DNA of 64,000 nt from an uncultured Gammaproteobacteria bacterium (GCA_964422865.1 CAYRCU010000002.1:8323-72322); one strand, 5' to 3'. Positions 19,372 through 60,928 are shown, counted from the stretch's first letter. A program made the numbers and translations. Notes: generated by a model not told the origin, from the letters alone.

Positions 19372-19824
19372 TTAAAGTTGTGTGACGACGAAGACTGCTG
19401 GATCTTCCGGAGTGCCTGTGAGGAGTCCGCAGTCCGTGGTTCTTTCCGGATCGTTTTGGTTCTCCAGGACTGCTTCCAGTTTGTATCTTTGATTTCTTTC
19501 TGAAATAGCTCCTCCTGAACAGTCCGTGTTATCGTAGGTGTATCGGTGCGGACTTGTTCCTATCGGGTCTTCAGGAATTTCTTTTATGTAGGTTGGGGTG
19601 AGTACTCCGAGGACAGAAGATGCCCTGCCGCTTGTTTCCGGATATTCGTTGTTGTCTGAATAATACATTTCGAGGGCGGTTTGGATAGCTTTTATGTCAC
19701 TTTTTCTTTTTGCGTCGCGACCTTTGACAAGGGCGCCCCTGAGTGAAGCGACACCCAGGACTGCGAGGATCCCTATGATTGCAATGACTATTAGGAGCTC
19801 GATGAGGGTGAAGCTTTTTCTCAT
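19372..19824 (-). CDS. type IV pilin-like protein (prepilin-type N-terminal domain)
   Basis: MRKSFTLIELLIVIAIIGILA N-terminal cleavage/methylation-type hydrophobic segment. Confidence 0.7.
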   Translation of the reverse strand: MRKSFTLIELLIVIAIIGILAVLGVASLRGALVKGRDAKRKSDIKAIQTALEMYYSDNNEYPETSGRASSVLGVLTPTYIKEIPEDPIGTSPHRYTYDNTDCSGGAISERNQRYKLEAVLENQNDPERTTDCGLLTGTPEDPAVFVVTQL

Positions 19825-20610: not shown

Positions 20611-21063
20611 ATGAAATGTCGATTTTGCGGTTTTTCAGAGACACAAGTTTTGGAGTCTCGGGTAAGTGAGGATGGTGATGTGGTCAGACGGAGGAGAGAG
20701 TGTGTTGGGTGTGAGAAGAGATTTACGACGTATGAGCGAGCGAAGCAGAGTGTTCTTTGGGTTGTGAAGAAAGATGGGAGACGCGAATCTTTTGACAGAG
20801 AGAAAACTAAAAGAGGAATACTCAGGGCTATTGAAAAGCGGGCAGTGAGCTTGGATTTGGTGGACGACATTGTTGACAGTGTTGAGCGGGAGATGCTTAA
20901 GAAGCAGAGTGAGGAAGTTTCATCGAGACTTATTGGAAATGCGATTTTGAGAAGATTGAAAAGAGTTGATAAGGTTGCTTGGCTTAGGTTTGCGAGCGTT
21001 TACCTTGAATTTGAAGATTTGGAAGATTTTGAAAAAGCGATGAAAAGCAGGGTTGGGACTTGA
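20611..21063 (+). CDS. nrdR: transcriptional repressor NrdR
   Basis: MKCRFCGF...RRRRECVGCEKRFTTYER zinc-ribbon plus ATP-cone, closely matching NrdR. Confidence 0.85.
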   Translation: MKCRFCGFSETQVLESRVSEDGDVVRRRRECVGCEKRFTTYERAKQSVLWVVKKDGRRESFDREKTKRGILRAIEKRAVSLDLVDDIVDSVEREMLKKQSEEVSSRLIGNAILRRLKRVDKVAWLRFASVYLEFEDLEDFEKAMKSRVGT

Positions 21064-21070
21064 AGGAAAA

Positions 21071-23563
21071 ATGGAAATACAAATTACAGGAGGTTATAAA
21101 AAATACAAGAGAAAAGCGGCGGGGCGCAGTGCAAAGCAATTTCTTGAGTCGATGAAGTTGTGGGCATATGCGGATGTCGTTTCGCAGGTGAAAAAGAGAC
21201 TTGGTAAGGTTCCCGAGAAACCTGTTGATTTACCTGTTGGAGAGTGGAGTGAGCAGGCCCTGCGGGTGCTTGGAGAGAGGTATTTGGTAAAAAATGAAGC
21301 GGGGGATGTCGTGGAGACACCGGAGGATATGTGTTGGAGGGTTTCTTGGGAGATTGCTTCCGCGGAGGTTTTGTGGGGAGCCAGCAGGGCAAAAGTTGAA
21401 GAGGTGGCGCGAGAGTTTTATTCCCTTTTGGTTAACAGGAAGTTTTTGCCGAATTCACCTACACTTATGAATGCCGGGACGGGAAACAATTTACAGTTTT
21501 CTGCCTGTTTTGTTTTGCCGGTGGAGGATTCCATGGAGGGAATTTTTGATGCTCTTAAAAATCAGGCAATGATTCATAAAAGTGGTGGCGGTACAGGATT
21601 TTCTTTTACAAGACTTAGGCCAAGAGGGTCGATAGTGAAGACAAGTACTGGGACTGCTTCCGGTCCCGTGAGTTTTATGAGGATTTTTGATGCGGCTACG
21701 AATGAGGTGAAGCAGGGAGGGAAGAGGAGAGGAGCCAATATGGGGATACTTCGTGTGGATCATCCGGACATACAGGAATTTATTCACTGCAAAGACGAAG
21801 GCGGAATATCGAACTTTAATATTTCGGTTGCGATTACGGATAAATTCATGGAAGCTTTGGATAGTGGTGGTGATTATGACTTGATTGACCCCAGGAATGG
21901 AAAGAAGGCGGGATCTTTGTCTGCGGCGGAGGTATTTAATGAAATAGCGGAAAGTGCTTGGCGTACCGGAGATCCGGGGCTTGTGTTTATTGATCAGATA
22001 AACAAGAGCAGTGCGAATCCTGTTCCGGGTCTTGGGCCGATTGAAGCTACGAACCCATGCGGAGAGCAACCATTGTACCCTTTTGATTCTTGTAATTTGG
22101 GGAGTATTTTTCTTACTTATTTTGTAAGGGATATGGATAATGGAAGGCGCGGCGTGGATTGGAGAGAACTTAAAAAGACAATAAGGAAGGCTGTTCGATT
22201 TATGGATAATGTTATCGAAGTGAACCCTTATCCTTTGGATTCAATCAGAAGGATGTCTTTGGGGGTTAGAAGGATAGGACTTGGAATTGGGGGGTGGGCG
22301 GACATGTTGATTGAACTTGGGATTCCTTATGATTCAGAGGAGGCCCTGGAACTTGCCAGAAAAGTTATGAAGACAATATCGGAGGAGGCAAGTTTGGAGA
22401 GTCAGAGGCTTGCTCAGGAAAGAGGACCCTTTCCTCTCTTTGAATATAGTATTTATAAAAACAGCAAGCCACGGAGACATTCAACTGTTACAACAATTGC
22501 GCCTACGGGAAGTATTTCAATAATTGCCGATGCTTCCGGGGGAATAGAACCGATATTTGCCATTGCCTATAGACATGTTGTGAAAGATAAGCATCTTGAT
22601 AGGACTTTAACGTTTATAAATCCAAGATTTGAGGAAGTTTCAAGAGCGCGGGGTTTTTGGAATGAGGAGATACGAAAGGTTGTTTTGGAACACGGAACTG
22701 TTCGAGGCATTTCTGAAATCCCAAAGGATGTGAGAGATGTTTTTGGGACTGCGCATGAAATTCATCACGATTGGCATATTAGAATGCAGGCTGCGTTTCA
22801 GGAATTTACAGAAAATGCTGTCAGCAAAACTATAAATTTGCGGAATGAAGTGAACGTTGAGGATATAAAGGAGGTTTACAAGTTTAGCTGGAAGTCCGGT
22901 TGTCGAGGAATAACGGTTTTTAGAGACGGATGCAAGGATATGCAGGTTTTGAATTTGGGAATTAAAGATGGGAGTGAAAAGGAAATATTGGAGGACGGGG
23001 AGCGAATGGTTGAAAGGTCGTATAAGGTAGCGGGCTCAACGTATAAGCTTGATACTCCGGTGGGTACGGCTTTTGTGACTATTAATGAGGATGGGGACGG
23101 AGAGCCGATTGAAGTTTTCATAAATGTTGGAAAGGCCGGGAGTGATGTTACGGCTGTTGCGGAGGCTTTGGGAAGAATGATCTCAACCTCTTTGAGACTG
23201 AAAGGATATCTTTCTCCCAGAGAGCGAGCTCAGGAAATTGCCCATCAACTTTCCGGGATTGGGGGAAGAAGAAGTGTTGGCTTTGGCCCTAATAGGATCA
23301 GAAGTTTACCGGATGCCGTGGCGGTGGCTTTGGGCAACCATTTGGGTTTTAAATTGAATGGAAGCGGGAAGCATAATGTTGATGGGAGAGTAAACACACA
23401 CAGTGAAGGTGGTAACGGTACTATGGGGAAGGAGGCGACCGAAAAGATGCAGGCGCAAACTCAGTTTGTTGGGGGAGATATTTGCCCATCTTGCGGGTCG
23501 GGGACGTTTATATATGAGGAAGGTTGTTCGAAGTGTTATGCCTGCGGACACAGTGAGTGCTAG
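21071..23563 (+). CDS. nrdJ: ribonucleotide reductase, class II (adenosylcobalamin-dependent)
   Basis: PTLMNAGT, CFVLPVEDSMEGIF and SGGGTGFSFTRLRPRGS motifs of B12-dependent RNR; C-terminal Cys-rich zinc ribbon; start placed at the Met after the nrdR stop. Confidence 0.85.
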   Translation: MEIQITGGYKKYKRKAAGRSAKQFLESMKLWAYADVVSQVKKRLGKVPEKPVDLPVGEWSEQALRVLGERYLVKNEAGDVVETPEDMCWRVSWEIASAEVLWGASRAKVEEVAREFYSLLVNRKFLPNSPTLMNAGTGNNLQFSACFVLPVEDSMEGIFDALKNQAMIHKSGGGTGFSFTRLRPRGSIVKTSTGTASGPVSFMRIFDAATNEVKQGGKRRGANMGILRVDHPDIQEFIHCKDEGGISNFNISVAITDKFMEALDSGGDYDLIDPRNGKKAGSLSAAEVFNEIAESAWRTGDPGLVFIDQINKSSANPVPGLGPIEATNPCGEQPLYPFDSCNLGSIFLTYFVRDMDNGRRGVDWRELKKTIRKAVRFMDNVIEVNPYPLDSIRRMSLGVRRIGLGIGGWADMLIELGIPYDSEEALELARKVMKTISEEASLESQRLAQERGPFPLFEYSIYKNSKPRRHSTVTTIAPTGSISIIADASGGIEPIFAIAYRHVVKDKHLDRTLTFINPRFEEVSRARGFWNEEIRKVVLEHGTVRGISEIPKDVRDVFGTAHEIHHDWHIRMQAAFQEFTENAVSKTINLRNEVNVEDIKEVYKFSWKSGCRGITVFRDGCKDMQVLNLGIKDGSEKEILEDGERMVERSYKVAGSTYKLDTPVGTAFVTINEDGDGEPIEVFINVGKAGSDVTAVAEALGRMISTSLRLKGYLSPRERAQEIAHQLSGIGGRRSVGFGPNRIRSLPDAVAVALGNHLGFKLNGSGKHNVDGRVNTHSEGGNGTMGKEATEKMQAQTQFVGGDICPSCGSGTFIYEEGCSKCYACGHSEC

Positions 23564-23569
23564 GGAGTA

Positions 23570-24103
23570 ATGGGAACTGTTTATACTAAAAAAGGAGATA
23601 AGGGAATGACCAGTTTTATTGACGGGAAGCGCGTTGTTAAGGGTGATGTGAGAGCCTGGGTTGTTGGTAGTTTTGATGAGGTAAATAGCTGGTTGGGGGT
23701 GATTATTAGTGAGTGTGAGGATGTGGGTCTTCGAGGTGTGCTGAGAGATGTTCAGAGAGATTTGTTTATCGTTAATTCTATTTTGGTTGGGGCAAAATTG
23801 CGGTTTGGTAAAAGTAAGACGATAAAGCTTGAAAGAAAGATTGATAAGATTGAGAAGGGGCTGCCAAAATTAACTAATTTTATTCTTCCCGGAGGTTCGA
23901 GATTGAGTGCGAAACTGCATTACGGGAGGGTGCTGGTGCGGCGCGCGGAGCGACATTTGGTGCTTTTAAATGAGGAAGAGAAAGTGTCTTCTTTGATCTT
24001 GATGTATGTTAACAGACTTTCGGATTTTATGTTTGTGCTGGCTAGGGAGGCGAACCTTAGGAGTGGGGTTTTGGAGGAAGTTTGGAAGACTTGGGAGGGG
24101 TGA
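23570..24103 (+). CDS. ATP:cob(I)alamin adenosyltransferase, PduO type
   Basis: YTKKGDKGMTSF...GSFDEVNSWLG matches the PduO/MMAB N-terminal motif (TRTGDKGTTSL...DELNS). Confidence 0.75.
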   Translation: MGTVYTKKGDKGMTSFIDGKRVVKGDVRAWVVGSFDEVNSWLGVIISECEDVGLRGVLRDVQRDLFIVNSILVGAKLRFGKSKTIKLERKIDKIEKGLPKLTNFILPGGSRLSAKLHYGRVLVRRAERHLVLLNEEEKVSSLILMYVNRLSDFMFVLAREANLRSGVLEEVWKTWEG

Positions 24104-24115
24104 TACAATGGTTTT

Positions 24116-24448
24116 ATGTCGAGCGTTGAGTATGAGCCGAAGGCTTCAACTTTGGAGGTAGATCCGGAGAAAAGGGATGCACAGACTTTGAGCGAGTTTG
24201 GTGTTCAAAGGAGACCTGTGTCTCCAAAGACTATTACGGATGATGGTGGACAAGTTGTTGCGCAAAGTGTTGGGGATGATTCGGACGGGGCTATTGAAAC
24301 GGTTGAGGTTCCGTATACCGAGGATCAGGCCAGAGCGGTGAGCAAGGGAGACGTGAGTGATGCGAAGACTTGGTTTGGGGCAATGCTTCTAAGGAAGATT
24401 AAAAAAGCTTTTGTGCAAGGTTTGAGCGTGATTGTGAAGTCTGAATAA
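24116..24448 (+). CDS. hypothetical acidic protein
   Basis: 110 aa, D/E-rich ORF directly upstream of the coupling-protein-like gene. Confidence 0.3.
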   Translation: MSSVEYEPKASTLEVDPEKRDAQTLSEFGVQRRPVSPKTITDDGGQVVAQSVGDDSDGAIETVEVPYTEDQARAVSKGDVSDAKTWFGAMLLRKIKKAFVQGLSVIVKSE

Positions 24449-24463: not shown

Positions 24464-26785
24464 ATGGATATATTGGAACTGGTGTTTTATTCTCTGATTA
24501 TTTTGACTTTGGCATTTATTGTTGGAGTGGGGTTAGGGTGGTTTTTTTTCAATATTTGGAAACATAGAAGGAGAGAGAAGAGGAGTTTAGATTCAGTACT
24601 TTTGGAGGTGGCGGTTCCGAGGGGGAATGAAATAAAGATCGATGCTATGGAGCAGCTTATTTCTTCTTTGTATTCGGTTAGGAAGGGTGGATGGAAAATG
24701 CGTTTTGATGCACAGCCTGTGATTAGCTTTGAGATTATTGCCAGACCTGAGGATATTCGGTTTTATGTTTGGACGTTTAGAAAGCTTAAGGATCTTGTGG
24801 AGAAGCAGATTCACGGGGCTTACCCGGATGCACAGGTGGAGGAAGTTGAGGAACAGAATGTTTTTAGTGAAGAGGGGAAGGTTGCTTATAAAGCGTTTCA
24901 GCTTAAGAAAGAGAATTTTTATCCCATTAGAACTTACAAGGAATTGCCTACCGATTCCATGGCTTCTATTACTTCGGCTTTGGCCAAAATGGGTGAAGGA
25001 GAGGCAGCAATTATTCAAGTGTTGATTTCACCTGCGGATTCTAAATGGCAGGGCGGAGGGAAAGATTTTATTTCAAGCACAAAGAAGAGTGAAAGTGATC
25101 CTGAGAAGGCGAGCTATTCGACCTCTGCGAGGAAACTTGAGGCCGTAGAGAATAAAGTAGGAAAACCCGGATTTGAAACTTCCATTAGAGTGGTTGTTGT
25201 AAGCAGCAGTGAGGAGGCTGCAAAAGTGCATCTTTCGAATATTTCAAGTGCTTTTGAACAATTTAATGGAGAGTTTAACGGATTTGGGGGGAGGAAAATC
25301 CGGAATAAAGGGGCTTTTATGGAGGAGGTTATTTACAGGTATCACCCGATTTTTAACTTTGGGGGAAACAGGGTGAGCATATTAAATGCAGAGGAGATTT
25401 CAACTGTTTTTCATTTTCCAAATAAGCTTATTACTACCCCTCATATTTTTTGGCTGAATGCGAAGACTGCTCCCGCTCCTTCTGAAATTCCCACTGAAGG
25501 GTTGTACCTTGGGCTAAGCCGCTATCGAGGAATGGAAAGGAAGGTTTATATTTCCGAAGAGGATAGGCAGAGGCATATGTATATTATCGGGAAGACGGGG
25601 ACCGGAAAGAGTGAGTTTTTGAAAGCAATGATACGACAGGATATTAATGCCGGGCACGGACTTTGTTTTATGGATCCTCATGGAGATGCTGTGGAGGACC
25701 TTTTGAATTACATTCCCCCGGAGAGGGCAGAGGATGTTATTTACTTTAGACCGGGGGATACTGCGCGTCCGATGGGACTGAATCTGTTGGAAGCTAAAAC
25801 CGAGGATCAGAAGCATTTTGTTTCCACTTCTGTTATTAACATGATGTACAAGCTTTTTGATCCTTATAAGACCGGCATTGTGGGGCCCAGGTTTGAGCAT
25901 GCTGTGAGGAATGCGATGCTTACTGTGATGAGTGAAGAGGGGACAACGTTTATTGAGGTGATGAGGATACTGACTGATTCGAAGTATGTGCAGGAGATGC
26001 TGCCTAAAGTCCAGGACCCGATTGTGAGGAGGTATTGGACGGATCAGATTGCACAAACAAGCGACTTCCATAAATCTGAGGTTCTTGATTATATAACCAG
26101 CAAGTTCGGGAGATTTGTTACCAACAAAATGGTTAGAAATATTATTGGGCAAAGCAAGAGCAGTTTCAATTTTAGAGAGGTTATGGATAACGGGAAGATA
26201 CTTCTTATTAACCTTAGCAAGGGAGACCTTGGAGAGGAGAACTCGAACTTTTTAGGTTTAATTTTGGTACCCAGAATATTGATGGCCGCTATGAGCAGGG
26301 CCGACATGCCGGAAGAACAAAGAAGGAGCTTTTATTTATATGTTGATGAGTTTCAGAATTTTGCCACTCCTGATTTTGCTCAAATATTATCCGAGGCGCG
26401 AAAGTATCGCCTAAGCTTGACGGTTGCCAATCAGTTTATAGGGCAAGTGGATGAGGAGGTTAAAAATGCTGTTTTTGGGAATGTTGGAACCTTGGTTTCT
26501 TACAGGGTGGGGGTGACGGATGCAAATTATTTGGCGCATGAGTATAGGCCTGTGTTTGAGGAGGATGATTTATTAAACATTGAGAGATATCATGTTTATA
26601 TAAAGACGACTGTAAACAATGAGCCTGTTCAGCCTTTTAGTATGGACATGACTATGGATATGGACGAGGTGAGGAAAAAGAGTAATCCGAAAGTTGCGGA
26701 AGTGATTCGGGAGATGAGCAGACTTAAGTACGGAAGGGACGCGCGATTGGTGGAGGCTGAGATTGCGAGGAGGGCGAGGTTGTAG
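24464..26785 (+). CDS. type IV secretion coupling protein-like ATPase (TraD/TrwB/VirD4 family), N-terminal TM
   Basis: IIGKTGTGKSEFL Walker A, DPHGD, FRPGD...GLNLLE, YVDEFQNF Walker B-like; resembles the TrwB GATGTGKS...DPNGD...NPxD pattern. Confidence 0.6.
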   Translation: MDILELVFYSLIILTLAFIVGVGLGWFFFNIWKHRRREKRSLDSVLLEVAVPRGNEIKIDAMEQLISSLYSVRKGGWKMRFDAQPVISFEIIARPEDIRFYVWTFRKLKDLVEKQIHGAYPDAQVEEVEEQNVFSEEGKVAYKAFQLKKENFYPIRTYKELPTDSMASITSALAKMGEGEAAIIQVLISPADSKWQGGGKDFISSTKKSESDPEKASYSTSARKLEAVENKVGKPGFETSIRVVVVSSSEEAAKVHLSNISSAFEQFNGEFNGFGGRKIRNKGAFMEEVIYRYHPIFNFGGNRVSILNAEEISTVFHFPNKLITTPHIFWLNAKTAPAPSEIPTEGLYLGLSRYRGMERKVYISEEDRQRHMYIIGKTGTGKSEFLKAMIRQDINAGHGLCFMDPHGDAVEDLLNYIPPERAEDVIYFRPGDTARPMGLNLLEAKTEDQKHFVSTSVINMMYKLFDPYKTGIVGPRFEHAVRNAMLTVMSEEGTTFIEVMRILTDSKYVQEMLPKVQDPIVRRYWTDQIAQTSDFHKSEVLDYITSKFGRFVTNKMVRNIIGQSKSSFNFREVMDNGKILLINLSKGDLGEENSNFLGLILVPRILMAAMSRADMPEEQRRSFYLYVDEFQNFATPDFAQILSEARKYRLSLTVANQFIGQVDEEVKNAVFGNVGTLVSYRVGVTDANYLAHEYRPVFEEDDLLNIERYHVYIKTTVNNEPVQPFSMDMTMDMDEVRKKSNPKVAEVIREMSRLKYGRDARLVEAEIARRARL

Positions 26786-26815: not shown

Positions 26816-26888
26816 GGAGCCGTAACTCAGTGGTTAGAGTGCCAATCTTATAAGTTGGAAGTCGATGGTTCGAATCCATCCGGCTCCA
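26816..26888 (+). tRNA. tRNA-Ile (anticodon TAT)
   Basis: 73 nt cloverleaf: acceptor GGAGCCG/CGGCTCC, D stem ACTC/GAGT, anticodon stem CCAAT/GTTGG with loop CTTATAA, T arm GATGG-TTCGAAT-CCATC. Confidence 0.75.
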
Positions 26889-27180
26889 CAAAACAGTTTC
26901 GCCGTACGTCTTCGGAACGCATTGAAAAGAACTTCGTGTTGTGCATGGCGAATCCATCCGGCTCCACAAAACAGTTCCGCCGTACGTCTTCGGAACGCTT
27001 TGAAAGGAAAGAAGTTTATGCATGGCGAATCCATCCGGCTCCACAAAACAGTTTCGCCGTACGTCTTCGGAACGCATTGAAAAGAACTTCGTGTTGTGCA
27101 TGGCGAATCCATCCGGCTCCACAAAACAGTTCCGCCGTATGTCTAAAGGAACGCATTGGAAGGAAGTTTGGGAGTTTGTT
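26871..27180. repeat. 4 tandem units (~78 bp) that each begin with the 3' end of the tRNA-Ile(TAT) gene
   Basis: GAATCCATCCGGCTCCACAAAACAGTTYCGCCGTACGTCTTCGGAACGC... starts at 26871, 26949, 27026 and 27104; the first unit is the tRNA 3' end itself. Confidence 0.85.
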
Positions 27181-27182
27181 AA

Positions 27183-28046
27183 TTAGAGTTCTTCGAGCAC
27201 CTGTTTTTTGCCGGGTTCTTTTATTTGTGCAAGTTCAAGATAGCGCTCTGTGGTCGAGAGGCGTTTGTGACCCGCGGCTTGAGAGATTGTTACAAGGTCA
27301 ACTCCGCGCTTTAAGTTTTCTATGATGAACGTGTTTCTGAGATCGTTGACTGAATAGCCCGGGATTTCCGCTTTTTGCATGTAGCGATCGATTGCGGCTC
27401 TGATGTTTCTTACTGCCAGGGGATGTCCGTTTTTGCTTATAAACAGGTATTCTGATTGAGTGTTTGAACGGGATCTGATGTAGGTTTCGATGGCTTCTTT
27501 GGCCGGTTGGTTGAGGAAGATTTTCCGCTCAGGTTGGGTGGCGTGGGCTTCGATGAAAATTTCTCCCTTCTTGATGTTTTTGAGTTTTAGGTTTGCAACT
27601 TCTGATATTCTGAGGCCGGTCTGGAGAATGATTTCAACTATTGCTGCCATTCTGGGGTCTGTACGAACGACGTCTCTTAGGGCTCTATATTCGATTTGGG
27701 AGAGGAATTTGGGTGCAGTGTTTTCGATTTTGGGGTGTGAAACGTCTTTTGAATGGTCGAACTGGATTACTCCCTGATCTTTGGCCCATCTAAAAAAGGT
27801 TTTGACGGCATTTAATTTTCTTGAGACTGATTTGGGAGTATATTTTTGTGCAAGAAGGGTGTCGCGAAAGGTTTCGAGATCTTTCTGTGTTATATCGGAA
27901 ACCACGCTTTTTGAAGTTTTTGCGAGATGTTGAGTTAGTTGTTCTAAATCAGATTTATAGGCTAGAATGGTTGAGGGCGAGCGACCTAGCTCTTGGAGAT
28001 GAGATATGAACTTTGGTAGTAAGATTATTAACGTTTCCTGGCTCAT
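27183..28046 (-). CDS. tyrosine-type site-specific recombinase/integrase
   Basis: C-terminal catalytic region AGHKRLSTTERYLE (HxxR...Y) plus upstream R; 287 aa; stop codon abuts the tRNA-fragment repeat array. Confidence 0.8.
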   Translation of the reverse strand: MSQETLIILLPKFISHLQELGRSPSTILAYKSDLEQLTQHLAKTSKSVVSDITQKDLETFRDTLLAQKYTPKSVSRKLNAVKTFFRWAKDQGVIQFDHSKDVSHPKIENTAPKFLSQIEYRALRDVVRTDPRMAAIVEIILQTGLRISEVANLKLKNIKKGEIFIEAHATQPERKIFLNQPAKEAIETYIRSRSNTQSEYLFISKNGHPLAVRNIRAAIDRYMQKAEIPGYSVNDLRNTFIIENLKRGVDLVTISQAAGHKRLSTTERYLELAQIKEPGKKQVLEEL

Positions 28047-28079: not shown

Positions 28080-28523
28080 ATGTGTCACGTCAACACTATA
28101 AGATATGTTATTATAAGCATGAAAAGTGATATTAAAACAGCCGGTTTAACCTTAAAAATTGGGTTTTTGATGAGACACGCTTACCTTGTTTTGGCTTTTT
28201 TGGTGGCGGCCAGTTTGGTTCGAAATATGATAAGGGTGATTTCTGCTCAAAAGAAACTGGATGAGGTTAGAGAGAGACTTGTTGAGTTTGAAAGGGAGAA
28301 CAAGGAGCTTGAGAATGAACTTGAGAAAATTTCGAGCGAGTTTTATGTGGAGAGTCAAGCGAGGAATAAGCTGGGACTTGCGAGGGAGGGTGAGGTGATT
28401 TTGGTATTGCCTTCAGAGGAGAAGGTGAAGCAGTTTTCAACAAGAAGAACAGAAGATGAAAAATATACATTTCCACCCCCAAACTGGAAAAAATGGATAG
28501 AAATGTTTATAGGCTCGAGTTAA
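28080..28523 (+). CDS. cell division protein FtsB/DivIC-like (septum formation initiator)
   Basis: Single TM helix followed by a coiled coil and YVESQARNKLGLAREGEVILVLP, typical of the FtsB/DivIC C-terminal motif; true start probably at an internal Met. Confidence 0.55.
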   Translation: MCHVNTIRYVIISMKSDIKTAGLTLKIGFLMRHAYLVLAFLVAASLVRNMIRVISAQKKLDEVRERLVEFERENKELENELEKISSEFYVESQARNKLGLAREGEVILVLPSEEKVKQFSTRRTEDEKYTFPPPNWKKWIEMFIGSS

Positions 28524-51051: not shown

Positions 51052-52547
<1,496 letters not shown>

Positions 52548-52680
52548 AGGAGTGTTTGGTCGTTAAGAACGACAACAACACCCGGTTTTAAGATCACGGT
52601 TTTTCCTTAAAAACCGAATCCGCTAGACACGGCGAGAAAGGTCGCTTCTGAGTGTATCTTGAGTAATTAGACAAAAGACA

Positions 52681-52706
52681 CCCCGTCTGTTAAGGCGGGT
52701 TTTTTG
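52681..52706 (+). terminator. rho-independent terminator after the 16S gene
   Basis: CCCGTC-TGTTAA-GGCGGG hairpin followed by TTTTTTG. Confidence 0.6.
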
Positions 52707-52719
52707 TTATACTGCCCTA

Positions 52720-53742
52720 ATGGATGATACTGCCCGACCAAGAATGATGGTTGAAGAGGTTCCTTCTGTGTTTCCGCAGCAAGAAGCTCAGGGGGTGGAT
52801 GAAGTTGTTCAAAAGCTGCCTGTGGTATCTAAAAGGAGTTTTTCTTTTAGAGCATTGGTTTTTATAGTTCCGGGAGTTCTTCTTTTGGTTGCGATACTTG
52901 TTGGAATGTATTTGGCAGATATTTTTTTTGAGGGAAATGAACAAGTTGTTGTTACTTCAACCCCCTTTCCTTCTTTGATTCCTGCCACGCCTGTTGCTTC
53001 TTTGGCTCCTGTTTCAAAATTATTGCTATATGTAAATGGGGACGGGGGATTTAAGTTTAGTTATTTGGATGATGTGGAGATCTTGGAATGTGCGGGTAGA
53101 GTGGAGTTGTTTGCTAATAAGAGTGTTCAGAAAACTTGTGAAGGAATGGGGGTTGTGTCGGTAATTTATGATGAGGATCAGTTTGAGTCAATTCAAGGGT
53201 TTGAGACAAGTGGGAAGGAGTTGGGGGAGAGAAAGTTGTTGGTGGTTTTGAGGGATGAGAGATATAGAAATGTTTATCAGAAGGTGGTGTTGAGTCTTAA
53301 GGCTTTAGTTGTTGATACTTCGGACTGGAGCTTGTATGAGAACGCTGTTGGAAAATACAGCTTTCTTTACCCCTCGGACTGGAAAGTTACGGAGCTTGAG
53401 AGTGGGAATGTTGTAGTTCAAAAAGATGAAGAGGAAAAGGACCACTGGATTTATCTTGTTGAATATACGGGAAGTGTAAGTGATGCTGAGCTTACGGCTA
53501 GTGAGATTTCTTCTTCTACTGTTGGTTTGGCTGGTTGGGACGGAGTACCCGAAGTGAATGTTCGCAATCTTTCCGGAGGGACAGCGCAGGTGATTGAAGG
53601 AAAGCTTGGAGATGTGTGGCAAGTGTATGTGGTTTTGTGGTACAAGGACAGATTGTACCAAATGAGTTGGGTGGATACTTTGAGTAGACAGGAGAGTGCA
53701 AACTTTGAGGCGATTATATCCAGTTTTGAACTTGTGAATTAG
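52720..53742 (+). CDS. hypothetical membrane-anchored protein (lies between the 16S and 23S genes)
   Basis: 340 aa with an N-terminal TM (LVFIVPGVLLLVAILVGMYL); no family recognised. Confidence 0.35.
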   Translation: MDDTARPRMMVEEVPSVFPQQEAQGVDEVVQKLPVVSKRSFSFRALVFIVPGVLLLVAILVGMYLADIFFEGNEQVVVTSTPFPSLIPATPVASLAPVSKLLLYVNGDGGFKFSYLDDVEILECAGRVELFANKSVQKTCEGMGVVSVIYDEDQFESIQGFETSGKELGERKLLVVLRDERYRNVYQKVVLSLKALVVDTSDWSLYENAVGKYSFLYPSDWKVTELESGNVVVQKDEEEKDHWIYLVEYTGSVSDAELTASEISSSTVGLAGWDGVPEVNVRNLSGGTAQVIEGKLGDVWQVYVVLWYKDRLYQMSWVDTLSRQESANFEAIISSFELVN

Positions 53743-55877
53743 TGATCTTTTGAAGATTTTTTACCCCAACGTTCTTGAGAGATTCTTATTACTTTACTTC
53801 TGTTTTGGTTTGCTGATGTTGGAAGCGGAAGAGTGTTGGCTAAAAACGGACGACTTGTATAGCCATCTATTGTAAGCTTTGCTGCTATTTGAAAGTTGTC
53901 CAGGTTTACAAGATCCTTTTTTTCGAAAACTTCTGCAAATTCTTTATATAGCACTTCGGCGTCTTCAGCCCCTATGGCAAAGGAGATAAGAGAGCCTACG
54001 TTTCCAAGGATTGCTTTTTGCACTTCTTCTGGGATTTGGGCCATGTATTGATTGGCAAGCATTAGGTTTAGGCGGTATTTTCTTGCTTCTGAAAGAATTT
54101 TAATGAATGATTCTGTAGCGAAGTTTTGAAACTCGTCAACGTAAAGAAAGAAGTCTGTGCGCTCTTCCATGGGGAAATTGACCCTGCGCATGGCTGCTAG
54201 TTGAAATTTTGTAATGAGAACTGCTCCCAGGAGTGCTGCGTTATCTTCACCGAGACGACCTTGAGAGAGATTTGCCAGGAAGATTTTTTGATTATTCATT
54301 ATGTCATCGAAATGAATTGTGCTTTTAGGGCTTCCGATGATACGACGAATTAGGGGGGAGGTGACAAATTGTCCAACTTTGTTTTGAATAGGGGAAATGG
54401 CTTCTTTTTGGAGTCGGTCCGGCATTTTTTCATATTCTTGCTTCCAAAAGTGAATGAGACTTTGATCTTTGACTTGTTCGAGGGCCCTTGCTCTGTAGCG
54501 GGTATTTGCAAGAAGTTTTAGAACATCTTGCAGGGTTGCTCCGTTAATGTGGGTGAGTGTTAAAAACGAGTTTCTGAGAATGTATTCCATACGAGCTGAC
54601 CAAACATTGGCCCAGATTTTTGTGAATACTGCCATGAGTCCGGAGACAACTAGCTCTGCTTCTTCTTGATTGGTGACTTCCAAGGGATTAATGACGATGG
54701 GTGACTGCCGATCTGAGGGATTAAAATAGATGGTGTCGTTTATTCTGTGACTTGGAATGTAGTTTAAGAGATCTTCACAAAGGTCGCCGTGAGGGTCAAT
54801 TACACCAAGACCTCGGCTTTTTTTTATGTCGTCGATACACATGTTTGCGATGAGTGTGGATTTCCCTGTGCCGGTTTTTCCCACGACCCAAATATGGCGC
54901 CTTCGATCATTGTTTTTTATTCCAAAGATTGTGTCATGGTTTTTGAATTGGGTGCGTGCAAAGAAGTTTACCAAAGCTTTTTCTTCAGTTGTTTTGTCGG
55001 TTGCGATTGGAAGGTTATCGGGAGCCTCGGAAAGGACGGAAGTCCCCCAGGCGATGGAGGCGGTTTTTACTTTTTCGCTGGGGAGGTGCCAGAGAGTAGC
55101 GAGCTCCATGATGTTTAGGATTTGTTTGTCGGTAACAGTTCTTTCAAGTAATGCTTTTTGAGACTTTGATTTTGATTCCAACAGGCCTCTTTTTTTAGTT
55201 ACAAAGCTGTTTCCGTCGGATCGAGTGAATACTCCAAGAGCAGATGAAAGTTCCGTAAGGACCCTTTTGTTGTTTGAGGCGATGCGAAGGGAAACCAAAA
55301 AACCTGGGTAAGAAATTTTTTCTTTTATAATGGAAGCGTCCGGATGTGGGGAGTAAGTTCCATCCTCATTTTTTGTGCCGTGGTCCGCGTAACTTTGACC
55401 TGTGGATTGCCATTTGGTGCTTGTAGCCTCAAGGGCTAATTGGATTATTGTTATTTCGGTGGGGTTACCTTTGGTGAGAATTGTGAGAAGGCTTGAGAGA
55501 GGATCGATATCGGTGAAATTTGTATAAGTAGCCAGAGGATAGTAATTACCTCTTTTTAGAGTTAATTCTTTGATATAGAGCGGGGACTCGCTTTTTAGGG
55601 GATCTTGGGTTGGCTCTATTATTACAAGAGGGTATGATGATCGGATTTGAGCCTCTATAAATGGCAGTAGTTCAGTGTTACAGGTTATTTGAAAGTGGAT
55701 TTGTTGGTTAATAAGGGCTATTTCGAGTGCAAGAGGGGCGGCGCGCTTGCCTTTGAGACGATCCAGATTCGAGACGCTGTTTATTTGGGTAAGGGTTGCC
55801 AGAAAAGTTTGAGCAGCTTCTGGTGTAACTTCTGTGTTCCTTGGTATTTTAAGAAAAAGAGTAGTGAGGTTTTGCAT
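53739..55877 (-). CDS. type IV secretion coupling protein-like ATPase (TraD/TrwB/VirD4 family), paralog
   Basis: VVGKTGTGKSTLI, DPHGD, FNPSDRQSPIVINPLE, YVDEFQNFAT; same domain order as the 24464 gene but lacking the N-terminal TM. Confidence 0.6.
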   Translation of the reverse strand: MQNLTTLFLKIPRNTEVTPEAAQTFLATLTQINSVSNLDRLKGKRAAPLALEIALINQQIHFQITCNTELLPFIEAQIRSSYPLVIIEPTQDPLKSESPLYIKELTLKRGNYYPLATYTNFTDIDPLSSLLTILTKGNPTEITIIQLALEATSTKWQSTGQSYADHGTKNEDGTYSPHPDASIIKEKISYPGFLVSLRIASNNKRVLTELSSALGVFTRSDGNSFVTKKRGLLESKSKSQKALLERTVTDKQILNIMELATLWHLPSEKVKTASIAWGTSVLSEAPDNLPIATDKTTEEKALVNFFARTQFKNHDTIFGIKNNDRRRHIWVVGKTGTGKSTLIANMCIDDIKKSRGLGVIDPHGDLCEDLLNYIPSHRINDTIYFNPSDRQSPIVINPLEVTNQEEAELVVSGLMAVFTKIWANVWSARMEYILRNSFLTLTHINGATLQDVLKLLANTRYRARALEQVKDQSLIHFWKQEYEKMPDRLQKEAISPIQNKVGQFVTSPLIRRIIGSPKSTIHFDDIMNNQKIFLANLSQGRLGEDNAALLGAVLITKFQLAAMRRVNFPMEERTDFFLYVDEFQNFATESFIKILSEARKYRLNLMLANQYMAQIPEEVQKAILGNVGSLISFAIGAEDAEVLYKEFAEVFEKKDLVNLDNFQIAAKLTIDGYTSRPFLANTLPLPTSANQNRSKVIRISQERWGKKSSKDH

Positions 55878-55932
55878 ATAACTATTATATAAGTATATAG
55901 GGAAGAAGTAGTTGATGTGTAGGGTTTTTGGG

Positions 55933-56006
55933 TGGGCCTGTCAGGATTCGAACCTGAGACCTCCAAATTATCAGTTTGGCGCTCTAACCAACTGAGCTAC
56001 AGGCCC
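55933..56006 (-). tRNA. tRNA-Ile (anticodon GAT)
   Basis: Reverse complement GGGCCTGTAGCTCAGTTGGTTAGAGCGCCAAACTGATAATTTGG...; loop CTGATAA; T arm TCAGG-TTCGAAT-CCTGA. Confidence 0.8.
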
Positions 56007-56213
56007 GAGTGCATAACTATTTTAACTCAAAACAATAATAAATCCAACAAAACGTGTGGTTTTATACAGATGGTTGACTGATGTGGGGTGAAAGTATATA
56101 ATTGGCATTACCTTTTTTAAGTTCGGAATAATTAATGAGAAGTAAGAGTTTAAAATTAAACACAGACCCTTTGCCTGCTTTTTGTGGGTAAAAGGGATTT
56201 AAGCTTCAAATTG

Positions 56214-56245
56214 ACCGACTTAAAAGGGTCGGTTCTTTTTATTTT
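56214..56245 (+). terminator. hairpin plus T-tract (candidate intrinsic terminator or small RNA 3' end)
   Basis: GACCGAC-TTAAAAGG-GTCGGTT followed by CTTTTTATTTT; no plus-strand CDS upstream. Confidence 0.4.
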
Positions 56246-56317
56246 GAGATGGATTGGAACTGGGCCGATAAGAACCTGGCTTTGCCAGAACCTTGACGCC
56301 CTGCTCGTTAATACTCG

Positions 56318-56432
56318 CAGGCCGTTAGCTCATCTGGTAAGCAAAGCTTGGCCAGCTGAGCTGATTGATAGATTAGGGCCGTTAGCTCATCTGGTAAGCA
56401 AAGCTTGGCCAGCTGAGCTGATTGATAGATTA
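56318..56432. repeat. 2 tandem 57-58 bp units made of the tRNA-Ala 5' fragment followed by a hairpin-forming conserved motif
   Basis: G(G)GCCGTTAGCTCATCTGGTA + AGCAAAGCTTGGCCAGCTGAGCTGATTGATAGATTA, twice; CCAGCTGAGC is nearly complementary to the D-arm GCTCATCTGG. Confidence 0.8.
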
Positions 56433-56505
56433 GGGCCGTTAGCTCATCTGGTAGAGCGTCCGGTTTGCATCCGGGAGGTGGCCGGTTCGAGTCCGGCACG
56501 GTCCA
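56433..56505 (+). tRNA. tRNA-Ala (anticodon TGC)
   Basis: GGGCCGT acceptor with G3:U70; D arm TAGCTCATCTGGTAGAGC; anticodon loop TTTGCAT; T arm GCCGG-TTCGAGT-CCGGC. Confidence 0.8.
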
Positions 56506-57215: not shown

Positions 57216-57261
<46 letters not shown>

Positions 57262-60592: not shown

Positions 60593-60724
60593 GTCGGACT
60601 CTATCCGGTGGAAGCGTTTGAGTCTTAAAAGGAGCTAACCTCAGTACGAGAGGACCAGGTTGGGGGAATCCCTAGTGTGCCGGTTGTGACGTCAGTCGCA
60701 ACGCCGGGTAGCTACATTCCTAAG

Positions 60725-60757
<33 letters not shown>

Positions 60758-60928
60758 CACCTTAAGATTAGGACTCTTTGAGACCCCTGGAAGAATACCA
60801 GGTTAATCGGCAGGAAGTGGAAGCTCCGTGAGGGGTTAAGCTTACCTTGCGCGAATCGGTCGAAAAGGCTTTTGACTAATTCTCTTCAGGTTTTAGGGAG
60901 CAATCCCTGTGAAGTTTGAAAATTGAAT

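Follow-up and report, generated by a model that had tools for sequence, protein, structure and literature searches.

Two old paralogous coupling-protein-like ATPases with a VirB4-like N-terminal domain in CPR bacteria

Background

What is the role of two ATPase genes that resemble those of type IV coupling proteins (T4CPs) in a segment of bacterial DNA in which no type IV secretion system (T4SS) genes are found alongside? The window, i.e., the whole 64-kb stretch of DNA that was analysed, contains such a pair, here termed gene 1 and gene 2. An earlier note on this DNA had pointed to tRNA genes close to both and to an integrase-like gene near gene 1, and considered that the pair may be remnants of conjugative or integrative elements or part of a DNA-uptake machinery. 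It had seen no VirB4 or relaxase gene in the window. Pfam scans of essentially all sizeable ORFs in the 64-kb sequence agree with this, and reveal no VirB4, relaxase or ComEC gene.

Results and discussion

The two paralogs and their motifs

The two ORFs, described in the earlier note as paralogous and T4CP-like, are both present (Table 1). They align end to end by BLASTP with 32% identity over ~720 residues (E = 4e-132). The duplication is old, since the identity of gene 2 to gene 1-type proteins is only 29–35% in nearly all comparisons, with a single partial match at 40%. From N- to C-terminus, the gene 1 protein has a transmembrane (TM) helix, a DUF8128 domain that resembles the N-terminal domain of VirB4, a T4CP-like ATPase that contains an all-alpha insertion, and a helical tail that is basic. 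The gene 2 protein has the DUF8128 domain and the T4CP-like ATPase without the TM helix. The C-termini of both are basic, and in some gene 2 orthologs are RGG-like.

Three of the four motifs that had been assigned to both proteins, GKTGTGKS, DPHGD and DEFQNF, are present in both. The fourth, NPxD, is not shared: gene 2 has NPSD, and the corresponding residues in gene 1 are RPGD (YFRPGDTARPMGLNLLE). The gene 1 Walker A motif aligns with the P-loop of TrwB. Residues G376, G379, G381 and K382 of this motif, together with D628, E629, R646, K647 and Q657 (gene 1 numbering), are invariant in alignments of both paralog families. In the gene 2 family alignment the Walker A residues G333, K334, G336, T337, G338, K339 and S340 and the whole DEFQNF motif are invariant, and T335 reaches at least 90% conservation. 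R646 and K647 of gene 1 align with the '...GRKAGL...' stretch of TrwB (alignment to TrwB residues 263–322), and we take them to be candidates for the arginine-finger role ascribed to this stretch in TrwB. The retention of every catalytic residue suggests that both paralogs hydrolyse NTP.

Table 1. Positions of genes, domains and motifs in the window
Feature	Position	Strand	Size	Remarks
Type IV pilin-like gene	19372-19824			4.6 kb upstream of gene 1
Small ORF	24116-24448	+	110 aa	15 bp upstream of gene 1 (WFGAMLLRKIKK)
Gene 1	24464-26785	+	773 aa	Intact ORF; membrane-anchored paralog
TM helix, gene 1	24470-24562	+		Residues ~3-33 (AF2 model), then KHRRREKR
DUF8128 domain, gene 1	24593-25498	+		Residues ~44-345; alpha/beta; Pfam PF26449
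Walker A, gene 1	25589-25612	+		GKTGTGKS, residues 376-383
All-alpha insertion, gene 1	25802-26188	+		Residues ~447-575; equivalent of T4CP all-alpha domain
Walker B region, gene 1	26345-26362	+		DEFQNF, residues 628-633; followed by R646/K647 and Q657
tRNA-Ile(TAT)	26816-26889	+		30 bp downstream of gene 1; ARAGORN, Rfam
Xer-family tyrosine recombinase	27183-28046	-	287 aa	Convergent with gene 1; Pfam Phage_integrase and SAM_1
DivIC/FtsB-like septum protein	28080-28523	+		Pfam DivIC; conserved block downstream of gene 1
Membrane protein	52720-53742	+	340 aa	Convergent with gene 2, overlaps its 3' end by 4 nt; Pfam PsbP 26.7 bits, weak
Gene 2	53739-55877	-	712 aa	Intact ORF; soluble paralog
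Walker B region, gene 2	54120-54137	-		DEFQNF, residues 581-586
Walker A, gene 2	54858-54881	-		GKTGTGKS, residues 333-340
tRNA-Ile(GAT)	55931-56006	-		53 bp upstream of gene 2, same strand; inverted relative to the rRNA genes

Family assignment of the motor domain

Two of the Pfam profiles that the earlier note proposed for an HMM search exceed their gathering thresholds (GA) in both proteins: TrwB_AAD_bind (PF10412) with 30.5 and 39.8 bits (GA 20.5), covering residues 363–664 of gene 1, and TraG-D_C with 22.8 and 32.2 bits. DotL (E = 1e-5) and TrwB (E = 7e-5) rank first in a PDB profile search. The full-length AF2 model of gene 1 (pLDDT 86.9) has helices only between the strands at residues 425–428 and 579–583, which form the all-alpha insertion. 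Foldseek aligns this model with TrwB over ~415 columns (TMt ~0.6, E ~1e-11), and DotL and Cagbeta are matched as well. The T4CP-like assignment thus holds for the motor half of the proteins, and the Pfam matches, the ranking of DotL and TrwB and the all-alpha insertion argue against a HerA/FtsK-type ATPase without this insertion, the other family that the earlier note had named.

The proteins are distant from the named families. The DUF87/HerA-central scores (32.9 and 35.4 bits, above GA) are about equal to those of the T4CP profiles. The best NCBIfam matches are SXT_TraD and the CD1115 VirD4-like family; among the NCBIfam T4CP families (TraD, CD1115, TrbC) the best scores are far below the thresholds, with 49.9 of the 366 bits required in one case and 46.1 of 250 in the other. 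The proteins are not HerA: neither HerA_C nor the NCBIfam HerA models give a significant score, the N-terminal domain resembles that of VirB4 rather than a barrel, and the window has no NurA gene. A defence-system identity was also considered and rejected; PADLOC gives a moderate mad8 match (E ~1e-15) and weak HerA matches, and the genes have no defence-system context. Gene 1 and gene 2 encode P-loop translocases of the FtsK/HerA superfamily that belong to the coupling-protein branch (VirD4/TraD/DotL/CD1115-like), and presumably they are hexameric like their solved relatives.

A comparison with TrwB of R388, DotL and Cagbeta shows a common P-loop nucleotide-binding domain (NBD), the Walker A and B motifs, the positions of R646/K647 and Q657, and the all-alpha insertion; gene 1 also shares the N-terminal membrane tethering. 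There are marked differences. Sequence identity is ~15%, gene 1 has an additional VirB4-like domain of ~300 aa between anchor and motor, the C-terminus is basic, and no relaxase or T4SS genes lie alongside. Typical T4CPs have two TM helices directly before the NBD, whereas throughout this family gene 1-type proteins have one and gene 2-type proteins none. The tails of TraD and DotL are acidic.

Membrane anchor and N-terminal domain

Gene 1 alone carries a TM anchor, as had been noted before. On the positive-inside rule, the basic segment that follows the helix predicts that the rest of the protein is cytoplasmic. A TM segment is found in 120 of 120 close gene 1 orthologs and in 34 of 35 orthologs from GTDB loci that have a complete N-terminus, and the distant orthologs listed from Saccharibacteria, WWE3 and WS6/Dojkabacteria have a strong N-terminal hydrophobic segment as well. 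Gene 2 orthologs essentially never have one. The anchored and soluble forms are two family-wide types.

The similar N-terminal domain that the earlier note saw in both proteins is real; it comprises ~300 aa and corresponds to Pfam PF26449/DUF8128 in precomputed annotations, where the window protein (P0001) and almost every ortholog of either paralog have matches. A phmmer search with the domain matches 2,198 cluster representatives. A literature search on DUF8128/PF26449 found nothing. The model of the isolated domain (pLDDT 90.4, pTM 0.89) was compared with the PDB by Foldseek, and the best 14 matches are all R388 TrwK/VirB4 (E from 3e-8 to 7e-5, TMq ~0.5); those that follow are unrelated oxidases with E of at least 2e-4. 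The full-length gene 1 model aligns with VirB4 over both halves (E = 1.7e-16). On the basis of these models, DUF8128 and the N-terminal domain of VirB4 share one fold, which is a new result. The likeness is found at the level of fold alone, with no sequence-profile match. It had not been spotted in the earlier note.

Conservation in CPR genomes

Gene 1 has more than 5,699 homologs, of which the best 120 are 73–79% identical; for gene 2 there are more than 6,180, the best 120 at 66–98% identity. For gene 1-type proteins the identity ranges from 41 to 77% in Microgenomates orders, Dojkabacteria/WS6, WWE3 and Saccharibacteria; for gene 2-type proteins it is 41–74% in 73 metagenome and lookup loci. 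Both types are on the same contig in all three cases that could be checked. The two genes are old, vertically inherited core chromosomal genes of CPR. The orthologs are named 'type IV secretion system DNA-binding domain-containing protein' at NCBI.

The genes are almost certainly the 'T4CP homologues' of Quinonero-Coronel et al. (2025, Microb Genom; PMC12102498). That paper counts 5,713 VirD4-type homologues, about two per genome and 148 of them near virB4; of the 3,035 Patescibacteria genomes surveyed, 2,918 (~96%) have such homologues. Like gene 1 and gene 2, these homologues are described there as VirD4-profile-positive, chromosomal, rarely near virB4 and without relaxase association. VirB4 is present in 80% of CPR genomes, compared with 96% for T4CP homologues, so that some CPR genomes have a T4CP homologue and no recognisable T4SS; the CPR VirB4 clade is nested in MPF-FATA (both PMC12102498). 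In Southlakia epibionticum the t4cp homologue is dispensable for epibiotic growth and other T4SS genes are essential, as cited there from Wang et al. 2023 (PMC12102498). The parts of the paper used here provide the counts and raise a possible exaptation; the VirB4-like N-terminal domain, the anchored/soluble split, and the Xer/DivIC and rRNA-interval syntenies are added by the present analysis.

Neighbourhood of gene 1

Gene 1 is part of an old syntenic block with the order RNR-CobAT-small ORF-gene 1-tRNA-Ile(TAT)-Xer-DivIC. It does lie directly upstream of the tRNA-Ile(TAT)/integrase pair reported for this locus, with the tRNA gene followed by the tyrosine recombinase gene on the minus strand. 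This module is itself old and lends no support to a mobile-element remnant. The tRNA-Ile(TAT) is the first tRNA downstream of gene 1-type genes in 51 of 75 loci. Of the 54 loci with enough flanking sequence, 32 have a Xer-family recombinase at most 5.5 kb downstream, on the opposite strand in 31 of the 32. The linkage to Xer includes Dojkabacteria/WS6 loci, where gene 1 is only 45–49% identical, and is absent from Saccharibacteria and WWE3 loci. The best NCBIfam matches of the recombinase are XerA, XerC and XerD, all under the equivalog cut-offs. Rather than an island integrase, the gene is a conserved neighbour on the chromosome. In locus L001 the tRNA-fragment repeats are absent, and the tRNA and xer genes are 19 bp apart.

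De novo clustering of neighbours finds DivIC in 34 gene 1-type loci, and FtsH and the NrdR-RNR operon are also close to genes of this type. Xer and DivIC, rather than T4SS genes, are the strongest conserved neighbours. A dif site beside xer, as in XerS/XerH systems, is unlikely: the GC skew keeps its sign throughout the window, and because there is no switch, neither a terminus nor dif is expected near 27 kb.

The small ORF is probably a co-transcribed partner of gene 1. Of 81 loci, 66 have a small same-strand ORF that stops shortly before the gene 1-type gene. The 110-aa protein is acidic and probably disordered in its N-terminal part, has an amphipathic helix at the C-terminus, and gives no match in Pfam, NCBIfam, PADLOC or PHROG. 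A C-terminal W-x3-4-hydrophobic-x-[RK]..[RK] motif is present in 38 of the 66 ORFs, compared with 2.6% of control ORFs.

Neighbourhood of gene 2

The coordinates bear out the earlier placement of gene 2 within the rRNA interval, next to tRNA-Ile(GAT) and the tRNA-Ala repeat locus. The gene is between the 16S (51057–52544) and 23S (56701–59790) genes and antisense to both; tRNA-Ala and the repeats are further along, beyond tRNA-Ile(GAT). A tRNA directly upstream on the same strand is also found in loci L002, L003 and L086, and not in L084 and L088. The PsbP-like membrane protein has convergent homologs in L002 and L003 and none in L086, and is a neighbour in close relatives only. Gene 2 has the same 16S-23S position in Woesebacteria-level relatives. 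This linkage is seen only in gene 2 orthologs of at least ~53% identity, not in all of them (L096, L097 and L148, at 53–55%, do not have it), and it is gone in more distant loci with 10-kb flanks. A functional meaning of the rRNA-operon position was dropped from consideration because of this limited range. A segmental duplication as the reason for a tRNA-Ile beside both paralogs was also rejected, as the tRNA is downstream of gene 1 but upstream of gene 2. The two tRNAs are 77% identical, which we judge to be unremarkable for isoacceptors.

Relatives and links to type IV secretion

Few loci show linkage to T4SS genes: 5 of 73 for gene 2-type genes, apparently from a single lineage, and 2 of 81 for gene 1-type genes. 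In the five (L116, L121–L123 and L144) the gene 2-type gene is inside a complete T4SS locus. On one side are PrgI, a TrsD-like gene, a VirB4 of the CD1110 family and an M23 hydrolase; on the other are a putative membrane protein of 548 aa and five ORFs that match T4SS_pilin, one of them above GA. The two gene 1-type genes (L036 and L053) are at most ~8 kb from VirB4.

The nearest relatives outside CPR are found in a Bacillus Tcp-type conjugation operon, in the T4CP position, and in phage G. The Bacillus protein (DUF87, 913 aa; e.g., CP120602.1) has the same N-terminal domain and motor architecture, as do Bacillus phage G gp156, 0305phi8-36 ORF201 and PHROG 5156 (phrog_5156 match, E = 5e-101). 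By tblastn the similarity to the plasmid and phage homologs extends over residues 63–762 with ~24% identity (E ~1e-36 to 1e-39), and the N-terminal domain alone gives E = 4e-26 with the Bacillus plasmid protein and 2e-12 with phage G. The Bacillus subtilis plasmid homolog is upstream of TcpC, TcpD and TcpE and of a separate AAA_10 VirB4/TcpF-type gene; in phage G too a separate VirB4-type ATPase adjoins the homolog. These homologs are on mobile elements or phages, whereas the CPR genes are in the core chromosome, and the Bacillus plasmid protein differs in having no N-terminal TM helix and a longer C-terminus. No experimental characterisation of the Bacillus plasmid or phage homologs was found. 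The plasmid differs from pLS20, whose T4CP is a classical VirD4 with two TM helices; the match belongs to the Tcp-type operon.

Possible functions

The explanation we prefer, and to which we give an even chance, is that the two proteins are domesticated T4SS coupling ATPases that descend from MPF-FATA/Tcp-like conjugation and still act at the CPR T4SS. On this view the chromosomal T4SS of CPR arose from monoderm conjugation machinery, and the two proteins would descend from the coupling ATPase of that machinery. The VirB4-like N-terminal domain may dock the proteins on the VirB4/PrgI/VirB6 platform, where they would energise or select cargo passing through a T4SS that has no relaxase. Because the relaxase is missing, the cargo is probably not a conjugative plasmid strand. 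It can be speculated that the two paralog types take up different, non-equivalent places within a single assembly, as the identical VirB4 subunits do in R388. Several observations are against a role at the T4SS: the linkage to T4SS genes is rare, and absent in the window; T4CP homologues are more widespread than VirB4; the homologue of Southlakia is non-essential; the 41–79% identity across classes is far above that usual for substrate-specific coupling proteins; the C-termini are basic; the NCBIfam T4CP scores are low; and the strongest conserved neighbours of gene 1 are Xer and DivIC.

A T4SS-independent DNA translocase, with gene 1 as an anchored hexamer that pumps or clears septal DNA together with Xer, in analogy to FtsK/SpoIIIE, and gene 2 as a soluble partner or specialised copy, seems rather unlikely to us. 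It would account for the convergent Xer gene, for DivIC, and for FtsH and NrdR-RNR nearby. The ATPase superfamily, the anchored motor of gene 1 and the Xer and divisome neighbours are shared with FtsK/SpoIIIE and XerCD, and there are weak FtsK_SpoIIIE and DUF87 matches. A universal substrate, for example DNA, would be consistent with the very high conservation and the basic C-terminus. The non-essentiality in Southlakia is compatible with such a role, since other bacteria can do without Xer/dif and SpoIIIE/SftA-type functions. A regex search finds no ORF with an FtsK-type Walker A in 2.37 Mb of CPR DNA, which is uninformative as this is a non-random sample of specific neighbourhoods. On the other side, FtsK_SpoIIIE (PF01580) matches the P-loop alone and stays below its GA of 24 bits (21.6 and 13.8), the alpha/beta/gamma organisation is absent, and neither protein has the gamma (KOPS/XerD) domain or a multi-span N-domain, the N-terminal region being a different one. 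TM7x carries an annotated ftsK, TM7x_00370 (bioRxiv 10.1101/2022.03.25.485537). The functional link to Xer is drawn from synteny, which can outlast functional links in small, streamlined genomes and does not extend to Saccharibacteria and WWE3, and the GC skew has no switch near 27 kb. A broader proposal is improbable: that the paralogs form a CPR-wide, T4SS-free pump for DNA or nucleoprotein, with VirB4 architecture and tied to Xer and septation, which would be both a second FtsK-like system made of domesticated conjugation parts and a surviving intermediate between VirB4 and VirD4.

We think it quite doubtful that the proteins drive DNA uptake in natural transformation as motors that cooperate with ComEC and the type IV pilus, as CedB does in crenarchaeal Ced import. 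CPR bacteria are naturally competent by T4P and ComEC, and comEC is non-essential (PMC12857230), which parallels the non-essential t4cp. The NCBIfam Ced DNA-import ATPases give weak matches (CedD, E = 3.5e-6 and 3.3e-7; CedB, 3e-4), and a pilin-like gene is present upstream of gene 1. However, the Ced matches are far below the cut-off and mainly in the P-loop region, the pilin is not a conserved neighbour, and there is no ComEC, ComFC, DprA or pilus-assembly gene among the conserved neighbours in ~150 loci of both paralogs.

We think it similarly doubtful that the proteins are divergent VirB4 paralogs and not coupling proteins, with T4CP profile matches that reflect only general similarity between sister families. 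The two-domain layout and N-terminal fold are those of TrwK/VirB4 (R388 cryo-EM structures 7O42, 7O43 and 8RTD), to which the full-length model aligns best, and with its one TM helix ahead of a VirB4-like body, gene 1 is reminiscent of VirB3-VirB4 fusions. However, the TM-score of the N-terminal domain is modest (~0.5), and DotL and TrwB lead the sequence searches. VirB4 profiles barely detect the proteins: TIGR00929 gives E = 0.06 for gene 1 and no match for gene 2, and PF03135, AAA_10 and P-loop_TraG match neither. A genuine CPR VirB4 scores 400 bits on CD1110 (cut-off 325) and 93 bits on P-loop_TraG, and a separate VirB4-type gene coexists in the CPR T4SS locus, the Bacillus Tcp-type operon and phage G.

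Decaying remnants of a conjugative or integrative element inserted at tRNA genes, as the earlier note suggested, are hardly credible: the T4CP-like gene, tRNA, tRNA-fragment repeats and tyrosine recombinase are side by side and the family probably originated from conjugation machinery, but neither ORF is truncated and the catalytic residues are invariant, thousands of orthologs exist (66–79% identity, and 41–79% across CPR classes) with a core-genome gene order shared by many species and classes, gene 2 has the same rRNA-interval place in each of the close relatives examined, the repeats are missing in L001, and the window has uniform GC content and no other transfer genes.

Conclusions

T4CP homologues in Patescibacteria were already known; the VirB4-like N-terminal domain, the old anchored/soluble pair and its placement in core blocks are added here. 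Few CPR-typical proteins are as widespread and as well conserved as ATPases of the gene 1 and gene 2 types. For annotation, gene 1, gene 2 and the adjoining tRNA and 'integrase' genes should not be labelled as an integrative element. The VirB4-like domain, the anchored/soluble pair and the fixed gene placement, in core blocks with Xer and DivIC for gene 1-type genes and within the T4SS locus of a single lineage for gene 2-type genes, give testable form to the exaptation raised in the literature (PMC12102498). The resulting hypotheses bear on the movement of DNA or proteins across the single membrane of these obligate epibionts.

The paralogous ATPase genes

The earlier note had described two paralogous type IV coupling protein (T4CP)-like ATPases, and both open reading frames (ORFs) are present in the window (see table). 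Gene 1, the membrane-anchored form, and gene 2, its soluble paralog, are 32% identical end to end (E = 4e-132, pairwise alignment). Of the motifs said to be common to them, GKTGTGKS, DPHGD and DEFQNF are found in both, but NPxD occurs only in gene 2, as NPSD, and is RPGD in gene 1. The proposed restriction of a transmembrane (TM) anchor to the first gene is borne out: the gene 1 N-terminus has a hydrophobic helix (residues ~3–33) followed by KHRRREKR, and orthologs of the gene 2 type have no TM helix. Gene 2 starts at the equivalent of gene 1 residue ~47, and a longer ORF is impossible because tRNA-Ile(GAT) is 53 bp upstream. The placement also stands, with gene 1 upstream of tRNA-Ile(TAT) and a recombinase and gene 2 in the 16S–23S interval.

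By Pfam, the window has ordinary core genes, among them those for enzymes of glycolysis and the pentose-phosphate pathway, two class A PBPs, NrdR, class II ribonucleotide reductase (RNR), TrpRS, FtsH, DNA ligase, RecF, RadA, S1 and one pilin. The same scans, which covered essentially all sizeable ORFs, revealed no VirB4, relaxase or ComEC in the window, in agreement with the earlier note on the first two.

Positions of features in the window
Feature	Positions	Strand	Remarks
NrdR, class II RNR, PduO-type cobalamin adenosyltransferase	20611–24103		
Small ORF	24116–24448	same as gene 1	directly upstream of gene 1; no database match
Gene 1	24464–26785	+	ORF, 773 aa
tRNA-Ile(TAT)	26816–26889		3' of gene 1
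tRNA-fragment tandem repeats	26871–27168		
Tyrosine recombinase	27183–28046	-	3' of gene 1
rRNA locus	51057–61048		
16S	51057–52544		gene 2 antisense to it
Gene 2	53739–55877	-	ORF, 712 aa
tRNA-fragment tandem repeats	56320–56594		
23S	56701–59790		gene 2 antisense to it
Group I intron	58727–59009		in 23S
LAGLIDADG ORF	59981–60457		past the Rfam 23S end, ahead of 5S

Motor and N-terminal domains

The motor halves match three Pfam profiles just over threshold: TrwB_AAD_bind (30.5 bits for gene 1, 39.8 bits for gene 2), DUF87/HerA-central (32.9 and 35.4 bits) and TraG-D_C (22.8 and 32.2 bits). Neither protein reaches the FtsK_SpoIIIE threshold. NCBIfam matches, every one far under the curated cut-off, are coupling proteins (SXT_TraD, CD1115 VirD4-like, TrbC, TOL TraD) or Ced DNA-import ATPases. 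A PDB sequence search with a profile built from 96 family members gives DotL (E = 1e-5) and then TrwB (E = 7e-5) as best matches, with HerA far lower. The AlphaFold2 model of gene 1 (pLDDT 86.9) displays a RecA-like core into which a purely helical segment (residues 447–575) is inserted. Foldseek aligns this model with TrwB over ~415 columns (TMt ~0.6, E ~1e-11), and DotL, Cagbeta and HerA are also matched. The TrwB_AAD_bind and TraG-D_C profiles uphold the T4CP-type assignment made earlier, and the helical insertion speaks against a HerA or FtsK type that has no all-alpha domain. Walker A, Walker B and the TrwB-aligned positions R646/K647 and Q657 are invariant across both paralog families; with these residues intact, both proteins should be active NTPases.

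The top full-length Foldseek matches of the gene 1 model are TrwK/VirB4 of the R388 type IV secretion system (T4SS), not T4CPs (E = 1.7e-16), with alignments that cover both halves of the protein. Residues 36–345 were therefore modelled separately (pLDDT 90.4, pTM 0.89). The best 14 PDB matches of this N-domain are all TrwK/VirB4 (E = 3e-8 to 7e-5, probability 1.00, TMq ~0.5), and those that follow are unrelated oxidases with E = 2e-4 or worse. Precomputed annotations assign the N-domain to Pfam DUF8128 (PF26449), on which a literature search found no publication. A phmmer search retrieved 2,198 representatives of 50%-identity clusters with this domain; it is near the N-terminus in all matches, and full-length carriers are mostly ~700–1,100 aa. 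As modelled, the family layout is an optional TM helix, a VirB4-like N-domain and a T4CP-like motor. VirB4 sequence profiles fail to recognise the paralogs (TIGR00929, E = 0.06), whereas a genuine VirB4 from the Candidate Phyla Radiation (CPR, Patescibacteria) scores 400 bits on the CD1110 model.

Phylogenetic distribution

Each paralog has thousands of homologs, and the best 120 are all from Woesebacteria or other Patescibacteria, with identities of 73–79% for gene 1 (identical self-hit excluded) and 66–98% for gene 2. In species-representative genomes, full-length gene 1-type orthologs with 41–77% identity are found in Woese-, Levy-, Gottesman-, Roizman-, Curtiss-, Davies-, Collier- and Shapirobacteria, Dojkabacteria/WS6, WWE3 and Saccharibacteria. 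All 120 close orthologs carry the TM helix, as do the listed distant ones. Gene 2-type orthologs (n = 73 among 80 metagenome loci and 4 earlier loci, 41–74% identity) score far higher against gene 2 than against gene 1. Gene 2 is 29–35% identical to almost every gene 1-type protein, whereas gene 1-type proteins are at least 41% identical to one another, which suggests that the duplication is probably older than the divergence of these CPR classes. Both types are on one contig in all three checkable cases (the window, JBFOMY010000007.1 and CP055307.1). Both paralogs are core genes and are vertically inherited.

The thousands of homologs and the two paralog types match the counts reported in a published census (PMC12102498), which lists 5,713 VirD4-type T4CP homologues in 2,918 of 3,035 Patescibacteria genomes, just 148 of them near virB4, and VirB4 itself in 2,417 of the genomes. 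Its authors state of the T4CP homologues that exaptation "cannot be ruled out".

Many gene 2-family proteins (P0125, P0170, P0176, P0190, P0220, P0221 and others) have basic, P/K/T/R/Q-rich C-terminal tails of 50–100 aa, probably disordered; an RGG-like example is ...GGRYNNYRGQSGGYRGGGRRR. Gene 2 of the window has no such tail. Gene 1 orthologs (58–73% identity) are also found on many contigs titled "uncultured Gammaproteobacteria", "Pseudomonadales", "Nevskiaceae" or "Bathyarchaeia" (loci L007, L008, L011–L014, L016, L017, L020–L022 and others, GTDB records). Because these orthologs are of CPR type and several of the contigs have CPR synteny, the titles are evidently wrong or placeholders.

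Gene 1 neighborhood

Among 81 gene 1-type loci, the first downstream tRNA is tRNA-Ile(TAT) in 51/75, across CPR classes. A tRNA-Ile with a TAT anticodon is uncommon in bacteria, most of which use a lysidine-modified CAT tRNA. In the window it is 77% identical to tRNA-Ile(GAT) of the rRNA region. Where the flank is long enough (54 loci), a Xer-family recombinase is located at most 5.5 kb downstream in 32, with 31 of these on the opposite strand; the top-scoring models for the window recombinase are XerA, XerC and XerD. This linkage reaches Dojkabacteria/WS6 and is missing from the Saccharibacteria and WWE3 loci. De novo clustering of neighbors gives Xer in 40 loci, DivIC in 34, RNR in 24 and cobalamin adenosyltransferase in 22.

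A small same-strand ORF ends just 5' of gene 1 in 66/81 loci. Its sequence diverges fast, yet a C-terminal amphipathic helix, W-x3-4-hydrophobic-x-[RK]..[RK], is kept in 38/66 (2.6% in control ORFs). Its product may serve the anchored ATPase as a partner or adaptor. In the window the NrdR, RNR and PduO genes, the small ORF and gene 1 are co-directional, with gaps of 6–15 bp or a short overlap, and this string is kept in 22–24 loci. Gene 1 may be co-transcribed with these DNA-precursor synthesis genes.

Gene 2 and the rRNA locus

A gene 2 ortholog is in the 16S–23S interval in all five genomes first examined, and rRNA genes adjoin it in ten more loci (identity at least 53%). Gene 2-type loci that are more distant and have long flanks lack the adjacency, which thus characterises Woesebacteria-level relatives rather than the whole family. 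Since the synteny of both genes is conserved, what had been termed a "tRNA/integrase module" and an rRNA-spacer "insertion" are stable chromosomal arrangements.

The rRNA locus of the window is stretched, with a 16S–23S gap of 4.1 kb that holds two protein genes and an inverted tRNA-Ile. Intervals in relatives are about 4–10 kb and contain further inserted genes and LAGLIDADG ORFs. The repeats near tRNA-Ile(TAT) are ~78-nt units in 3–4 copies that start within the 3' end of the tRNA. Directly upstream of tRNA-Ala are two exact 57-nt units, each opening with the first 20 nt of the gene, and a second copy of the gene's last 19 nt is found 88 nt downstream. Related locus L001 is without the tRNA-Ile fragment repeats and has a tRNA-to-xer gap of 19 bp; the repeats are local.

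GC skew, (G-C)/(G+C), is strongly positive across positions 1–64000 (+0.14 to +0.47) with no sign change, and stays so at 12.5–18.2 kb despite minus-strand genes there. This strand asymmetry is unusually strong, and the whole window appears to be on one replichore.

Association with type IV secretion genes

In five loci (L116, L121–L123 and L144) a gene 2-type gene, ~45% identical to gene 2, is within a complete CPR T4SS locus. Its divergent flank has a PrgI/VirB3-family gene, a TrsD-like gene, a CD1110-family VirB4 and an M23 hydrolase; the opposite flank has a 548-aa putative membrane protein and five tandem T4SS_pilin-profile ORFs, one over the gathering score and the others just under. The compact locus (L121 1–22172, likewise in the other four) also encodes an NMNAT-like cytidylyltransferase and a 1,208-aa uncharacterised protein. 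A VirB4 gene is within ~8 kb of the gene 1-type gene in 2/81 loci.

The N-domain plus motor layout is also found in Bacillus plasmids, in proteins labelled "DUF87 domain-containing protein" (tblastn, residues 63–762, E ~1e-36 to 1e-39; N-domain alone, E = 4e-26). In CP120602.1 the homolog is upstream of TcpC, TcpD, TcpE and a separate AAA_10 (VirB4/TcpF-type) gene, a place that we take to be that of TcpA, the T4CP, in the pCW3 gene order. Bacillus jumbo phage G encodes a homolog, gp156 (E = 5e-40; N-domain alone, E = 2e-12), adjoined by gp155, a VirB4-type ATPase (P-loop_TraG; L171, JN638751.1 89194–93336). The group that includes gp156, PHROG 5156, matches gene 1 at E = 5e-101. Phage 0305phi8-36 has a comparable full-length match, Bacillus phages make up 35/37 matching phage records, and in SPO1-like phages the match is confined to the motor half.

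From these CPR T4SS, plasmid and phage contexts, the family seems to be the ATPase that acts as coupling protein in monoderm MPF-FATA/Tcp-like systems, and in CPR it has been duplicated and scattered over the chromosome. The CPR VirB4 clade is reported to be nested in MPF-FATA (PMC12102498).

Functional considerations

The two proteins are T4CP-branch P-loop motors that also have a VirB4-like N-domain; both are catalytically intact as judged by their motifs, one being membrane-tethered and one soluble. The chances are about even that they still serve a chromosomal, relaxase-less CPR T4SS as energising or substrate-selecting ATPases. The N-domain would dock both on the VirB4/PrgI/VirB6 platform, perhaps with the two paralogs in non-equivalent positions of one assembly. 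Against such service, the genes are seldom linked to T4SS genes, their sequences are conserved to a degree unusual in a substrate receptor, and C-termini are basic, in some gene 2 orthologs with RGG-like tails that suggest nucleic-acid binding. In addition, T4CP homologues are reported to be more widespread than VirB4, and the Southlakia t4cp homologue to be dispensable for epibiotic growth when other T4SS genes are not (PMC12102498).

The main rival is T4SS-independent DNA handling at division. The Xer/DivIC block beside gene 1 favors it, but the sub-threshold FtsK profile, the annotated ftsK of TM7x (bioRxiv 10.1101/2022.03.25.485537) and the GC skew, which places no terminus in the window, make it rather unlikely. 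A role in DNA uptake, to which the weak Ced-like matches point, is improbable given that linkage to competence genes is absent in ~150 loci. It is similarly doubtful that the proteins are divergent VirB4s, a reading contradicted by the sequence profiles and by true VirB4 genes that coexist with family members. Least probable by far is the main reading of the earlier note, remnants of conjugative or integrative elements, which is contradicted by thousands of conserved homologs, core-gene conservation, vertical inheritance and synteny that is stable across classes.

Published work and the NCBI and Pfam annotations already cover this family and its unusual distribution. As far as could be found, there is no earlier description of the similarity in fold of DUF8128 to the VirB4 N-domain, the sharp division of the paralogs into an anchored and a soluble type, the small ORF conserved upstream of gene 1, the syntenies with Xer/DivIC and in the rRNA interval, or the Bacillus plasmid and phage relatives paired with VirB4-type genes. 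These new points open to testing the role of the most widespread "T4SS" ATPases of the CPR.
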